A stretch of DNA of 64,000 bases from a virus, in IMG/VR virus record IMGVR_UViG_3300017917_001616, positions 10,983-74,982 of that record; one strand, written 5' to 3'. Shown here piece after piece: positions 8,707 through 23,813 of this stretch. Under the pieces are notes generated by a model. The model saw only the letters and a list, made by a program, of their open reading frames with translations. It was not told the origin of the DNA and ran no database searches. Every line of letters begins with the position of its first letter. Position 1 is the first letter of the stretch. A program made the position numbers and the translations under genes.

Positions 8707-8717
8707 ATTTGGTAAAC

Positions 8718-8902
8718 ACTGTGTTTAAAACTAACACGATACTAGATACTGTGTATAATGCACCGTTGGTTAGTGACCAGGTATTAGTAGGCTGAACAGC
8801 GTTGGGACGCAACTGTCGCAAAGACAGGAGGACTGGTTCGATTCCAGCAGTAGCAATTTACTCTCGAGGTGGGTTGCTTATTGTGTTAGTTTTAAACACA
8901 GT
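8718..8902 (+). ncRNA. Long closed-stem RNA with T-loop hairpin
   Basis: ~23-bp IR actgtgtttaaaactaacacgat / attgtgttagttttaaacacagt; ctggttcgattccag inside. Confidence 0.5.
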
Positions 8903-8907
8903 ATAAC

Positions 8908-9765
8908 ATGGGCGGTATAGCGTCCGACTTAAGGGTAAGTGCAGTAATGCACCCAAAGCAAGGTTTCCTATAAACTTGCGCTGTAGCAATACAGTCCATC
9001 TATGCAAGCCTGAACTAGAGTTGACTCGGTTATCCGAAAGCAACTCCCGTCCGTAGAAAGGCGGTAGGCAGTAAGTTAGGAATGGTGTCCGAAAGGATAG
9101 TCGCAGAGCCAGTCGGTGAGCGATAAGAGGGTTGGCGCCCAAACACCGTTCAGCCAAACTAACGAATGCTGAAAGTTAACAGGTAGCTACAGAGTCTGAG
9201 CCCGCAAGCAAAGGCATGGTAGCATCTTGAGAGTGGAAGGGTTAGGCCCCGGATACTTGAAAAGACGTTGAGTAGTCCGCAAGACGAAAGACAGTTGGTG
9301 TGTTGTATTCTGTATCTAACAAGATATGGAGCAACTGGGGCAGCACATCGAAGTAGGTTCGCAATATTGCATAACGGTAATGCAATCGTATTATCAAACG
9401 ACAGACTGTGGGTTCGATTCCCACTGTTGCACACAAAAGCGAAAGACTGTCCCGGTATACTACGAAAGGTGGTTAATGCCACACTCGAAAGAGAATGTGG
9501 TCTACAGATGCTCGCAAGGCGGACGTAGTTGTTCGGAAAGATAGCGTAACTTCTTAGCGGAAGTGAACTGCTCGCAAGGCAGGCGAAGGATAGAAGGACG
9601 AGTAGTAGTATGCGACGAGAGAAACGCCACTCTCCAAAAAAGGCACCACTGGAAGATACAGGATGACCGTAAAAGGCTCCTGTGGATAACGAGAGAACGT
9701 GGCTCGCAAGGCTAACGGTAATGCTCAAAGGCTTCCATCCTATGCTGTAATCTCAAGCTAGGCAA
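8908..9765 (+). ncRNA. GOLLD-like giant ncRNA
   Basis: ~860 nt, no credible ORF, dense GNRA-capped hairpins (gcaa, gaaa), in a phage tRNA cluster, 3' end gctgtaatctcaagc; matches my recollection of GOLLD. Confidence 0.7.
9361..9430 (+). ncRNA. tRNA-like domain embedded in the GOLLD-like RNA
   Basis: gcaata/tgttgc acceptor, D arm, 8-nt anticodon loop, gtgggttcgattcccac T arm, no CCA. Confidence 0.65.
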
Positions 9766-9769
9766 AACA

Positions 9770-9855
9770 TTACGTTTTGATGATACACATATATACTAAC
9801 AGAGGCTTAGTCCGGAGAGCGTTATGCCAAGTTTATGTGTATCTTCTAAGCGTAA
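9770..9855 (+). ncRNA. Closed-stem small RNA (family A, copy 1)
   Basis: ttacgttttgatgatacacata / tatgtgtatcttctaagcgtaa. Confidence 0.55.
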
Positions 9856-19834: not shown

Positions 19835-21030
19835 TTTCTAAGGATGTTTTTGTTGTGTTAAGCAACACTGTTGAAAGTTATCATTCTTTTTTATCTGTTA
19901 AAAATGAACGTATAAACAGCATAGAAAATACTTTAGGTTTTTATCCAGGGTTTGACTATAACTTACTTGTAAATTTTAAATTTGCAAAGTTTTTACCCGT
20001 CGATTCGTTAAAGTTAGTATTAAATTTAACTATGTTACCAAATTACGTTAATATATACCTAGATAGTGAAGTAATCGATTATATAAATCAAACAGACAAC
20101 GTATATCTTTGGTTATATTCGCCGCACGAATCTACATTACGATTTGATTTATTGTTCGACGAATTACAAAAACATAATATAAAATTTGAAAAAGTCATTA
20201 TATCTAACAGTAGTGATCGCTATCATCATAAAATAGTAGATGGTGTAAAGTTTACTTGTTTATATAATTGGTGGGAACAATATTATAAGTTTCATTTACA
20301 GACCTTTACAGACGTTTCCTTTGTGACTCCGGAACAAAGATTAGCAACTATTAGCACTGCAAATAAAAAGTTCTTAAACTTAAACCGGAATTTAAAAAAC
20401 TTCAGAGTTTGGTTCTATTACAAAATGATAGAACACGGCGTCGTAGATCAAGGACATGTAAGTTACCATTTGCCTACAATAGCAAATAGTTTTGAAGATT
20501 ATAATTTGTTTTTAGAAAAAGAACTATCTAAACTAAACAACAATACATTAAAAAATAAAATTTTACTAACACCTGAAATTTATAAAGTCAAAGAACTTGA
20601 TGCGTTAAACCATAATATGATAATCAATTACCAAAATAGTATTGCAGATTATTATAATGACAGTTTAGTATCTTTTACTTGCGAAAGTTTATTAGAAGAA
20701 AACTTTATAACGGAAAAAACATTTAAGTCTATAACACATTCGCATCCGTTTATAATGATAGGCAACGATAAGATAACACAACGATTAAGATTAGCGGGCT
20801 ATAAAACCTTTGAATCAATATTTGGGTTAGATCACGTATCTACCTTAGATGCTGCAGATGAATTGTTATATGCAGTAAAGAATACAACGTTAGACAATTT
20901 AAAGAAAATTGTTAGAGAAGAATGTTTTGAAGATGTGACGTATAATTACAATCATTTTTTTAATCGAAAAGTTCATTTCAACGAAATACTCGACGATATT
21001 AAAAAAGTGGTTGACTTCAAGACATCATGA
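19831..21030 (+). CDS. Hypothetical protein, glycosyltransferase-like family of large phages
   Basis: KFLNLNR, FITEKTFK...HPFI, GYKTF motifs. Confidence 0.55.
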   Translation: MISKDVFVVLSNTVESYHSFLSVKNERINSIENTLGFYPGFDYNLLVNFKFAKFLPVDSLKLVLNLTMLPNYVNIYLDSEVIDYINQTDNVYLWLYSPHESTLRFDLLFDELQKHNIKFEKVIISNSSDRYHHKIVDGVKFTCLYNWWEQYYKFHLQTFTDVSFVTPEQRLATISTANKKFLNLNRNLKNFRVWFYYKMIEHGVVDQGHVSYHLPTIANSFEDYNLFLEKELSKLNNNTLKNKILLTPEIYKVKELDALNHNMIINYQNSIADYYNDSLVSFTCESLLEENFITEKTFKSITHSHPFIMIGNDKITQRLRLAGYKTFESIFGLDHVSTLDAADELLYAVKNTTLDNLKKIVREECFEDVTYNYNHFFNRKVHFNEILDDIKKVVDFKTS

Positions 21031-21052
21031 AAGTATATATAAATTAACAAAT

Positions 21053-21127
21053 GCCTCTGTAGCTCAGTGGAAGAGCTCTGGTCTTCGAAACCAAGGGTCG
21101 GGAGTTCGAATCTCTCTAGGGGCACCA
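21053..21127 (+). tRNA. tRNA-Arg(TCG)
   Basis: cttcgaa loop, CCA. Confidence 0.88.
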
Positions 21128-21132
21128 AATAT

Positions 21133-21208
21133 ACTTCCGTAGCTCAATTGGAAGAGTGCCGCCCTACGAAGGCGATTGTTGGGGGTTCGAGTCCCTCCGG
21201 GAGTGCCA
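21133..21208 (+). tRNA. tRNA-Arg(ACG)
   Basis: ctacgaa loop, CCA. Confidence 0.9.
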
Positions 21209-21214
21209 ATTTTA

Positions 21215-21291
21215 TAGGCCGTAACTATGGTGTAGTCGGACAATATGACATGTTGTCGTCGGAGATGGGTTCGATCCCCGCAGGCCTACCA
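21215..21291 (+). tRNA. Degenerate tRNA-Val(GAC)-like
   Basis: aggcc/ggcct, gacaata-tgaca-tgttgtc, T loop, CCA. Confidence 0.5.
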
Positions 21292-21295
21292 ATTT

Positions 21296-21369
21296 GCTGC
21301 TATAGTATAAAGGTATTATGCGTCTTTGGTAAGGACGAGACGGAGGATCGTTACCTCCTAGCAGCACCA
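21296..21369 (+). tRNA. tRNA-Thr(GGT)
   Basis: cgtct-ttggtaa-ggacg, CCA. Confidence 0.88.
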
Positions 21370-21388
21370 GAAAAAAGATAAAAAAGAT

Positions 21389-21450
21389 GTTGACATTTAT
21401 AACGTCTTACTTTAAATGTAACATGTAGACGATGAAGATGCTCTTTGACA
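21389..21450 (+). promoter_or_regulatory. sigma70 promoter plus boxA
   Basis: ttgaca at 21389, tgctctttgaca at 21439. Confidence 0.65.
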
Positions 21451-21460
21451 AATTAAACAA

Positions 21461-21964
21461 ATGACTTGGTTGTGTGCAGAACACGTAAACCCAAGTTGCG
21501 TAAATAACAGAAGCTGGTGACTATAGCATATTGTTAATGCGCTACATTGAAGGAAAGATGGCGTGGCGACCATCCAGAGCAAAGGCTCTGCAAGCACAAA
21601 TCAGCTAACATGTGCGTCAGTTGTAGAGAAACTTGTCGATTCAAGTCAATGGTCGCTTCTGTTTTCACATGCACATGCGGTAGGCGCCGCTTCGAAAAGG
21701 TATGAAAGACCTAACGCCGAAAGGATAGCGAAAGACACTCTGCAGGGTGGCTCGAGTAACTAACATGTGCAGCTGAAAGCAGAAATACCTGGGCGATGAC
21801 TCGAGTAAAGCAATCTTTACCAGAGGTTGTTTGAAAGACGGCGTCAGGCTCGATACTCTAATTGTAGGGGTGCATAACGTCTACTACTACGGGCATCGGG
21901 CGGCAAGATAAGGTGCTGGTAACACTGGACTTGCTGGTGGGTTCAACTTCCCATGCCTTGGTCA
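21461..21964 (+). ncRNA. Unknown ~500-nt structured RNA
   Basis: No credible ORF; cagaagc/gcttctg, tgcacatg/catgtgca, GAAA tetraloops; 3' tRNA-like module. Confidence 0.55.
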
Positions 21965-22118
21965 AAATAATAGATTGGCCTGAGTTTGATGTTTCTCGAG
22001 ATAAATCATTCCAGGACGACGTCGGCCTGTGTTCCCACCGTGCTTGAGCCGACGATAAAAAAGCAGAGTGAAAATGCTTGAGAGACTGTTCAGTTAACGG
22101 TGGGCCGTAATTTAGTTA

Positions 22119-22225
22119 CGCTGGGTCTAGCATGGTGCTGTCGAAGAGGTTGATCTCTCCTAGACGAAGTAGAGAAATGAAACGCTCATGTGCTTCATCC
22201 CGTTCGAATCGGACGCCCGGCGCCA
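22119..22225 (+). ncRNA. Enlarged tRNA-like element ending CCA
   Basis: cgctggg/cccggcg acceptor, gttcgaatc T loop, no canonical anticodon arm. Confidence 0.5.
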
Positions 22226-22427
22226 ATTAACACCCATGTTCGTCTTGCTTAGTTTAGCATGTATGACTTGGGCACCAAATATTCACTATACAGGGGGTCG
22301 ACATTCTGTGTAGAGAGAACACTGCCTAGCCCGTGGGACCTCGGGGTAGCATTAAGGCGAAATACCAGTTCGTGCAGGGGTAAAAGTCCTAACGGGGGGT
22401 CCCAGGAAATTTTTAAGGTAATAGAAG

Positions 22428-22949
22428 ATGAAAGAAGCACGTAAATACCTAGTATTTTTGGATGTTGATGGCGTGTTTACTTCGTCACGTGTTCATTATG
22501 GTCACAATGCTAGCTACGATATGTGGCACAGGTTTGATCCAGTTGCAGTAGACTTTATGAATAAGATTCATGATCGGTATCCAGTTGAGTTTGTTCTAAT
22601 GTCAACTTGGAAAAACTATATCGATGTAAAAAGTCATATGATCCAGCATTGGGTTCGTGCTGCATTTGGTAATAGCGGTTTCAGGGGGCAACTTGCAACT
22701 CCGTGGAAAACAGATCCTGACGAACTTTGGATCAACAGAAAAAACTTTGACCGAGGCGACGAAGTAAAAGAGTATTTAGATGTATACGGACAGGATGTCA
22801 ACGATTTCATCTTATTTGACGACAATGCTTATAACTTCGATAAAGCACTAGGAGTTAAGCGGCTAGTAAGAACAGATCATGAAAATGGACTGTTATACAA
22901 GCATATGCTACATGCCCAGAGTATCATGGGACAATGGCATGAACGATAG
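22428..22949 (+). CDS. HAD-family (Swiss-army-knife RNA repair type) domain protein
   Basis: FLDVDGV, STW, RGDEV, FILFDD motifs. Confidence 0.7.
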   Translation: MKEARKYLVFLDVDGVFTSSRVHYGHNASYDMWHRFDPVAVDFMNKIHDRYPVEFVLMSTWKNYIDVKSHMIQHWVRAAFGNSGFRGQLATPWKTDPDELWINRKNFDRGDEVKEYLDVYGQDVNDFILFDDNAYNFDKALGVKRLVRTDHENGLLYKHMLHAQSIMGQWHER

Positions 22950-23013
22950 GTAGCTGCAACTACCTTGGCTAGGAGACTATCTTTAACGAACTTTGCAGAG
23001 TTGTTGATAGGTA

Positions 23014-23085
23014 GACTGTTTCGTCTAACGGAGAGGACGCTGCCTAGAGGTGGCAGAGATATAGGTTCGAATCCTGTAGCAGTTT
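23014..23085 (+). pseudogene. tRNA-like pseudogene (GAG-centred loop, no CCA)
   Basis: gactgtt/agcagtt, ctgcc-tagaggt-ggcag, ggttcgaatcc. Confidence 0.5.
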
Positions 23086-23104
23086 TGCTCTTAGCCAGAA
23101 ATTA

Positions 23105-23183
23105 GTCCTTGTAACGGAAATTGGTAAACCTCTTCCGTCGAGAGCGGCAGGATTTGTGGGTTCGAGTCCCACCAAGGACACCA
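23105..23183 (+). tRNA. tRNA-Leu(GAG), short variable loop, C33
   Basis: gtccttg/caaggac, ccg-tcgagag-cgg, CCA. Confidence 0.7.
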
Positions 23184-23246
23184 ATTAATATCTTGACATT
23201 ATACCAAATGTAATTTACAATTTAGTAGAAATATGAAAGGTATAGC

Positions 23247-23813
23247 ATGACAAAAGATATTTGGGTTATTAGTGATACGCACTTTAACCACGCAAACATT
23301 CTAAAATTTACAGATAGTAACACAGGCGAATTGATTCGTGGCGCTAAATTTCAGTCAGTGACTGAAATGGACGAATATATGGTAGACCGTTGGAACAGCA
23401 CAGTAAAGCCCGGGGATAAGGTTTATCATCTAGGCGATGTTATGTTCGGAGATAAAGAGTATTTCCAAAAGCTATGGCCTAAGCTACACGGACAAAAGCG
23501 TCTTATTGTGGGAAACCATGACGACATTAAGTATCTATCTAGTGGCGGGTTCTTTGCAAAGGTTCATATGTGGCGTATGATGACTGAGTTTGGCTTGCTG
23601 CTAACACATGTTCCTGTTCATCCTAGCAACTTGCGAGTATACGCTGTAGAAGGCGAATACAACGAGGGTGATGTAGGAACAGTTCAAAAGACGTTTCTTA
23701 ATGTTCATGGACATATTCACCAAAATCCAAGCCCAGAAGGGCCATATCGCAATATGAGCGTAGAGGCCATTGATTATACTCCTGTTAACATCGAAGAACT
23801 GAGGATTAAGTAA
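23247..23813 (+). CDS. Calcineurin-like metallophosphoesterase
   Basis: SDTHF, HLGD, GNHD, HGHIH. Confidence 0.9.
   Translation: MTKDIWVISDTHFNHANILKFTDSNTGELIRGAKFQSVTEMDEYMVDRWNSTVKPGDKVYHLGDVMFGDKEYFQKLWPKLHGQKRLIVGNHDDIKYLSSGGFFAKVHMWRMMTEFGLLLTHVPVHPSNLRVYAVEGEYNEGDVGTVQKTFLNVHGHIHQNPSPEGPYRNMSVEAIDYTPVNIEELRIK

Follow-up and report, generated by a model that had tools for sequence, protein, structure and literature searches.

Positions 21461-21964 of the window (the whole 64,000-nt stretch of DNA analysed here) probably hold several small structured RNA modules lying in a row, and not one RNA. We draw this from the pattern of conservation: each part recurs in its own set of phage contigs, and relatives do not keep the parts linked. 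The modularity is shown, as are homology, strand and secondary structures. An earlier interpretation made from the letters alone (the sequence-only reading) had proposed a single ~500-nt ornate RNA or ribozyme. We retain its structured, non-coding + strand RNA behind a boxA, belonging to no described family, but not the single large molecule, and nothing points to catalysis. The 3' limit that it set at 21964 is arbitrary: the GC-rich ORF-free block extends to 22428. With unit boundaries at 21506, 21657 and 21787, the block and its surroundings are laid out as follows:

21390..21418, + strand: promoter-like site, with an A-rich tract, a perfect -35 TTGACA (21390-21395) and a weak -10
21440..21451, + strand: boxA GCTCTTTGACAA of the rrn/nut type, from a motif scan
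21463..21497, + strand: M0, a conserved leader hairpin (GACUUGG-UUGUGUG..ACACG-UAA..CCAAGUU), from predicted fold and homologs
21506..21663, + strand: M1, a 158-nt multi-hairpin RNA closed by AACAGAAGC/GCUUCUGUU plus GACUA/UGGUC
21657..21784, + strand: M2, a 128-nt constant-stem cassette with 5' arm UUCUGUUUUCACAUGCAC (+AUG), 3' arm (CAU+)GUGCAGCUGAAAGCAGAA and an 85-nt A/G-rich cargo
21787..21962, + strand: M34, a 176-nt five-helix RNA, from homologs and covariation
21973..22116, + strand: D1, a further module of the ORF-free block, beyond the limit set earlier
22120..22225, + strand: Dmid, a 106-nt oversized tRNA-like RNA with a 7-bp acceptor-like stem GCUGGGU/GCCCGGC, a UUCGAAU hairpin and a 3' GCCA
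22280..22410, + strand: D2, a conserved module (UUCACUAURCARGRGGUCGACAU...GUGCAGGGGUAAAAGUCC) just upstream of the HAD_SAK_2 gene
22428-22949: HAD_SAK_2 gene, from a Pfam match

The source record is a 75-kb IMG/VR viral contig of an uncultured jumbo phage, estimated to be 19% complete, whose ribonucleotide reductase is nearest to those of Stenotrophomonas phage DLP_6 and of 350-380-kb jumbo phages such as GAP32, CBB and XaC1. The window carries 41 tRNA genes, all on the + strand, and a GOLLD RNA (RF02032) at ~8710-9760, of which the Rfam model covers 9295-9759 only. An A-tract, a TTGACA promoter (8636) and a boxA (8696) lie at the head of the GOLLD block, and the same layout of A-tract, TTGACA and boxA is found ahead of the present block and in the related phage G001 (L016). 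Of the promoter previously claimed for the region, the perfect -35 behind an A-rich tract stands, but the -10, read from the sequence as either TTAAAT (at 16 nt) or TAAATG (at 17 nt), is weak, and a consensus promoter scanner made no call at the site. The boxA ahead of the RNA is confirmed at 21440-21451. Matches to this motif with at most 1 mismatch number 6, against 0.89 expected by chance; three of the window's boxA sites are on the + strand (7203, 8696 and 21440) and each heads an RNA block, and boxA-like words also lead homologous modules in G028/L051, L053, G010 and G001. The absence of a credible ORF is borne out as well, the longest stop-to-stop frame between 21370 and 22430 being 70 aa on the + strand and 85 aa on the - strand (table 11). 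Recoding TGA as W, or TAG or TAA as Q, opened no long + strand frame (maximum 92 aa), with up to 193 aa on the - strand. The G+C content, raised across 21475-22440, is 47-52% versus 39.5% window-wide and is similar to that of the GOLLD block. No terminator-like sites were found in 20900-23300. Upstream of the promoter-like site, directly after two tRNA-Arg genes, lies an uncalled tRNA-like gene (21218-21292) that ends in ...ACCA, has the T arm GGGUUCGAUCCCC and is ~91% conserved in G028 and L073.

BLAST against the collected loci brought out relatives of the leader, and a search of 30 whole viral records those of M1 (in G010) and M34 (in G028). The leader has homologs in L051, L028, L025 and L053, M1 in G010 only, and M34 in G028, L070, L071, L072 and L073. 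The closest relative, G028, shares synteny with the window over the span between tRNA-Lys and tRNA-Leu, and at this place it lacks four module-sized stretches (21293-21780, 21850-21905, 21973-22116 and 22227-22279). Its M34 comes after an odd tRNA-like gene, and its own leader and cassette lie ~670 nt upstream, ahead of tRNA-Lys; the 5' and 3' halves of the supposed single RNA are therefore unlinked in the nearest relative. Exact-pattern scans for M4, M1 and the leader brought no relatives beyond those already known, and models R1 (M34) and R2 (M1), run over 33 related viral records, found only G028, G010 and one weak match of 16.6 bits. A blastn search of the RNA block against GenBank phages gave 0 matches. 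As synteny anchors, the upstream 399-aa protein had distant relatives only, and the HAD_SAK_2 gene led to 3 contigs, at 73-79% identity, in which the RNA is absent at that place. A 16-nt match in G002/G003 was set aside as chance, sitting within a coding region, and a boxA-like word in G003 was rejected as also coding.

As far as we checked, M34 appears to be a new clover-shaped RNA family with strong evolutionary support. Its helices are the following:

21787-21794/21955-21962: P1, the closing stem
21795-21845: P2, a long arm with the invariant loop UUUACCAG (21816-21823)
21848..21901, + strand: P3, an optional arm; the indel spans 21850-21905
21902-21935: P4, with the 7-nt loop CUGGUAA (21916-21922)
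21937-21954: P5, with the 8-nt loop UUCAACUU

Scanning metagenomes with the pair of invariant loops from the 3' part yielded 4 further copies of M34, which now has 5 metagenomic or viral homologs, 4 of them distinct in sequence (G028/L056 and the metagenome contigs L073, L072, L070 and L071). Identity to G028/L056 is 81% over 21781-21849 and 95% over 21906-21970. The window, L072 and L070 have P3, G028/L073 lack it and L071 is missing most of it; the P3 helix (21848-21858/21891-21901) shows 3 compensatory pairs. Across the 3 long forms, pairing holds in 96.9% of cells, and M34 retains many G.U pairs. Double-change pairs number 15, versus 5.8 +/- 1.8 in shuffles (0/500 reach 15) and at most 5 in slid controls; the short forms add compensatory changes in P1 and P2. 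The genomic position of the module differs between copies: in L071 it takes up precisely the space that separates tRNA-Ile from tRNA-Glu, L072 and G028/L073 have it behind a promoter of its own (TTGACR-17-TAnnAA), and the L072 copy precedes a protein gene. Rfam gave no M34 match at E<=5 on the homolog contigs L071, L072 and L073, and an exact-pattern scan with the T-like hairpin plus the window's own 3' strand gave 0 matches.

The same covariation bears on the words from which the sequence-only reading had built its structure. All of them are present: the pairs cagaagc (21508)/gcttctg (21655), tgcacatg (21670)/catgtgca (21764), gggcat (21891)/atgcct (21953) and cggcaag (21901)/cttgctg (21930), and the repeats ctaacatgtgc (21605 and 21760) and ctcgagta (21751 and 21800). 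Both copies of the last are there, but by our estimate a second copy of an 8-mer within 500 nt is expected by chance. The pairing of gggcat with atgcct as a tRNA-like acceptor is contradicted: gggcatcgggc (21891-21901) pairs by covariation with gctcgatactc (21848-21858), and atgcct pairs with gggc at 21791-21794. The D-armless tRNA-like module once suggested for the 3' part is not supported, its acceptor helix being contradicted by covariation, and neither RF00005 (above 29 bits) nor ARAGORN called a tRNA in 21461-21964 or on the M34 homologs L071, L072 and L073.

Two of the M34 loops are related to each other. UUACCAG in the P2 loop and the P4 loop CUGGUAA are exact reverse complements of each other, and both occur in 6/6 copies. 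The duplex would have an energy of -9.3 kcal/mol, and an exact 7-mer complement arises in 1.5% of shuffled modules. We infer that M34 folds on itself via this 7-bp loop-loop contact; both loops are invariant. CUGGUAA is also one base off the anticodon loop UUGGUAA of the phage's tRNA-Thr(GGU) at 21296, and UUACCAG contains the Thr codon ACC. On these grounds we put forward, as a speculation with a small chance of being right, that M34 is a new class of tRNA-array RNA whose invariant loops form a codon-anticodon-like 7-bp contact, serving as a tRNA-shaped decoy, in assembly or in tRNA-Thr capture, and that it titrates or shields a host factor. A contact within the molecule could make a compact tRNA-shaped decoy. 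Contacts between molecules could give dimers or larger RNA-only assemblies, as for GOLLD and ROOL, for which such assemblies have been reported. The UUACCAG loop could also capture the real tRNA-Thr. If any of this were true, the phage would be titrating or shielding a host factor directed at tRNAs, for example ThrRS, a modification enzyme or an anticodon nuclease. M34 offers a compact and well-supported fold of 144-195 nt, with a putative loop-loop contact built in.

The 5' modules are conserved in other lineages. M0 is 79-83% identical in L051/G028, L028/L025 and L053, and shows no covariation because its sequence is invariant. Next to it comes AACAGAAGC (X'), whose sequence complements the 5' arm of the cassette that follows. 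The leader region that recurs is 21440-21512; in L051, L028, L025 and L053 a cassette lies directly 3' of it, and in L028 and L053 tRNAs come straight after leader and cassette. More tentatively than M34, M1 may be a new small RNA family. Its one homolog, 88% identical over 21515-21666, is in G010, a complete 195-kb phage record, where it lies directly 3' of a boxA and is followed by a cassette with the same UUCUGUUUUC arm; the M1 covariance model R2 found G010 only among 33 records. The consensus fold of the two has 44 pairs with 2 compensatory changes and 0 broken save one gap, a covariation that, coming from two sequences only, is suggestive. The 3' strand of M1 and the 5' arm of M2 have 7 nt in common (the AACAGAAGC/GCUUCUGUU helix uses the first 7 nt of M2), so the closing helices of M1 and M2 are mutually exclusive and there is some coupling between neighbouring modules. 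In the X'-X-X' layout after boxA (21506-21514 / 21655-21668 / 21774-21784), X can pair either with the upstream X', closing M1, or with its true 3' arm. This layout recurs in G010, and also in L028, L051 and L053 with a 3-4-nt loop replacing M1; the alternative pairing may order folding or cutting. Modules that travel separately could yet dock on each other in this phage.

M2 is one member of a larger family. A recurring 18-nt match supplied the scan pattern TTCTRTTTTCACATGCAC, with GTGCAGYTGAAARYAGAR for the 3' arm. Scanning viral contigs with the 18-mer gave 35 matches, 33 of which have a matching 3' arm 80-155 nt away; these cassettes adjoin tRNA genes and their interior is different each time. 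As a control, the same 18-mer matched 20 times in 596 Gb of prokaryote genomes, with a 3' arm in 1/20, on a 743-nt MAG contig. By its distribution the cassette is phage-specific, sits beside tRNA genes and varies in cargo between copies. We collected 33 distinct copies from all loci, including 21657-21784 of the window. The arms of the family, UUCURUUUUCACAUGCAC and GUGCAGYUGAAARYAGAR, stand 80-155 nt apart on the tRNA strand; the window matches the first at 18/18 positions (21657-21674) and the second at 17/18 (21767-21784), an A to G change giving U.G. The stem is ~22 bp long and its extension pairs covary. Across the 33 copies we counted G.U 19 times and A.C 3 times, which indicates that selection acts at the level of the + strand RNA, not of an inverted repeat in the DNA. 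A tandem mismatch at stem positions 12-13 is conserved, being A.G in 33/33 copies and C.U or C.C in 32/33; in the window it is C.C and A.G, and the extension is AUG/CAU. By eye, the stem has no obvious sequence likeness to phage T7 R1.1.

The stem, then, is what makes the cassette stable, since M2 as a whole has z = -2.6 while the cargo alone (21679-21763), at z = +1.96, folds worse than shuffles. The cargo is predicted to be unstructured, and the GAAA-capped stems described within it are weak. An exact-pattern scan found 0 further copies of this cargo. The word GAAAGAC occurs three times, at 21704 and 21730 in the M2 cargo and at 21833 in the conserved junction of M34 (GAAAGAYGGCGUCAG). Elsewhere in the window, the cargo of a cassette after GOLLD (9785-9840, ...tatactaacagaggcttagtccggagagcgttatgcc...) recurs in L094, the 743-nt MAG contig, inside the UUCUGUUUUCACAUGCAC stem type, so that the same cargo is found inside two different constant stems. 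In G001 (L016), the minus strand at 1520-680 has its own promoter and boxA and then ~800 nt of ORF-free structured RNA. The cassettes in this stretch have a third type of stem (CUCUACUUACACAUG.../...UUGUAAGUAGAG), with 4 compensatory pairs relative to the window's stem, and the stretch has no Rfam match.

Downstream of M34 the block continues in the same manner. D1 is 79-81% identical over 21976-22042 to L033, L044 and L047 and 75% identical to L040, and is absent at the corresponding place in G028. Dmid, which neither ARAGORN nor Rfam called, is 97% identical in G028 and also present in L073 and L024; the homology block stops at CCA. D2 is 79-88% identical to L024, L033, L047, L028 and G028. 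An ORF comes directly after it in the window, L033 and L047, and a cassette in L024; D2 could be the leader of the HAD_SAK_2 gene or a separate RNA. Its word GUAAAAGUCC is reminiscent of RNase P CR-I, with no model match. After the RNA block come the HAD_SAK_2 gene (22428-22949), which we take to encode a 'Swiss Army Knife' RNA-repair HAD, two tRNA-Leu(GAG) genes and then a calcineurin-like phosphoesterase gene (23247-23813). These genes fit a neighbourhood of tRNA repair and maintenance.

The best explanation, and in our judgement a likely one, is that 21440-22428 is a ~1-kb ORF-free, boxA-led stretch of a stable-RNA/tRNA operon in which autonomous modules are set end to end, with 21461-21964 making up its first half. 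The transcription unit, its processing by RNase III and tRNA-type enzymes, and its function are inferred by analogy with rrn operons, phage T7 RNase III sites and the T4 tRNA cluster. Host RNA polymerase would start at the sigma-70-like promoter or read in from the tRNA promoter at ~21010. The boxA would render it resistant to termination, as in rrn operons, and so let it cross the strong structures. The precursor would then be cut into modules by host RNases, with the ~22-bp constant stem of M2 acting as a stalk for double-strand processing and protection, most plausibly by RNase III, and the ends of adjacent tRNAs and tRNA-like RNAs being handled by tRNA-processing enzymes. Once released, the RNAs probably have a part in tRNA metabolism or in a tRNA-directed conflict with the host.

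The modules might instead be no more than cis-acting operon furniture (antitermination signals, folding insulators and RNase entry sites that aid tRNA maturation), with no trans-acting product. The conservation of the constant stem but not of its cargo, here predicted to be unstructured, would suit such a role, as would the constant location of the modules in or beside tRNA arrays and the X'-X-X' pairing right after boxA, kept in five lineages. M34 and M1, however, have elaborate covarying multi-helix folds and invariant loops that exceed the needs of a cleavage site, and the L072 copy of M34 comes with a promoter of its own and has a protein gene, not a tRNA, after it. We therefore regard this account as unlikely.

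A single ~500-nt ornate RNA or ribozyme, GOLLD- or ROOL-like and with unevenly conserved domains, is very improbable. It would explain why the layout is the same as in the GOLLD block (A-tract, TTGACA, boxA and ~1 kb of GC-rich ORF-free RNA), why M1 and M2 have a strand in common and why the 12-nt word ccgaaaggatag occurs in both the region and the GOLLD block; moreover, the 5' half of GOLLD is itself variable, leaving only 9295-9759 to the Rfam model. Yet the two halves are unlinked in G028, M34 can be found by itself, either flanked by two tRNAs or with a promoter of its own, 3 lineages have leader and cassette but neither M1 nor M34, the fold of the whole region (516 nt) barely beats shuffles (z = -1.7), and GOLLD and ROOL are not matched at E<=10. 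The least credible account, that these are selfish DNA insertions (MITE-like or homing cassettes) and decayed tRNA genes with no RNA function, takes in the module-sized indels between close relatives, the inverted terminal repeats of M2 and the cargo shared by two stem types (L094 and window 9785-9840), but it sits ill with the G.U to A.C ratio and the strand-specific C.U/A.G mismatch, where DNA inverted repeats would be symmetric, with the many G.U pairs retained in M34, and with the co-orientation of all copies with tRNAs and a G+C raised as in GOLLD.

Under the modular operon reading, modules would pass as cassettes from phage to phage, with an rrn-style boxA driving them. The tRNA arrays of jumbo phages are usually annotated as tRNAs and empty gaps; here a gap of ~1 kb consists of conserved, covarying RNA structures. 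Should the modules turn out to serve as decoys or scaffolds for host factors directed at tRNAs, the struggle over tRNAs between phage and host would gain an RNA layer. The case also cautions against over-reading: a long GC-rich ORF-free block beside GOLLD need not be another giant RNA.

Comparison with described families supports the novelty expected from the sequence-only reading, since none of them matches 21461-21964, including GOLLD, ROOL, introns and tRNA. All Rfam families, searched at the gathering threshold over the window and at E<=10 over 21200-23300, gave only tRNAs, GOLLD elsewhere and noise, and the contigs of relatives gave likewise nothing else. The models of GOLLD (RF02032) and ROOL (RF03087) found no match in 21200-23300 at E<=10. 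Signatures of tmRNA and RNase P are lacking, as that reading held, with 0 hits in 21461-21964 even at E<=10: ARAGORN called no tmRNA and Rfam matched none, and RNase P RNA and group I/II introns had no model match at E<=10. YrlA (RF02553) did not match the region, and the 75-kb record, itself 19% complete, contains no TROVE (Ro) or RtcB genes. On the T4 tRNA region, models R1 and R2 gave at most 10 bits, which is noise, and we found no description of these modules in the literature that we searched.

Among known systems, the T4 species 1 and 2 (rnaC, 139 nt, and rnaD, 119 nt), annotated in the T4 record as small stable RNAs only, resemble the modules in being small stable RNAs, about as long as a tRNA or slightly longer, encoded right beside tRNA genes in a phage tRNA operon. 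Unlike them, the modules are more numerous, boxA-led and accompanied by a constant-stem family, and there is no homology. E. coli rrn operons combine boxA antitermination with leader and trailer helices cut by RNase III. Here too boxA follows the promoter, the leader pairs with sequence beyond a structured RNA, there is a ~22-bp stem and the putative polycistronic precursor has embedded tRNAs; the enclosed RNAs, in contrast, are of 80-130 nt and unrelated to rRNA, the stem has a constant sequence with a conserved 2x2 mismatch, and cleavage is proposed by analogy. GOLLD shares the promoter and boxA heading, the rise in G+C, the tRNA-rich jumbo phage setting and the GAAA-rich sequence, but its model finds no match at E<=10, and the present region splits into separately inherited modules with no single conserved core. 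The closest formal likeness of M34 is to tRNA. Its short form is a four-way junction in cloverleaf order, its last hairpin (loop UUCAACUU) lies right against the 3' strand of the closing stem, in the manner of a T arm, and the arm with the 7-nt loop CUGGUAA resembles the anticodon arm, its loop being like that of tRNA-Thr(GGU). Unlike tRNA, M34 is without a CCA end, its 'D arm' is ~50 nt, its anticodon-like arm is ~2x the normal length, its T-like loop has 8 nt and it may carry an optional fifth helix. Altogether, we would place M34 and M1 among the small stable RNAs of phage tRNA clusters and the tRNA-like RNAs.
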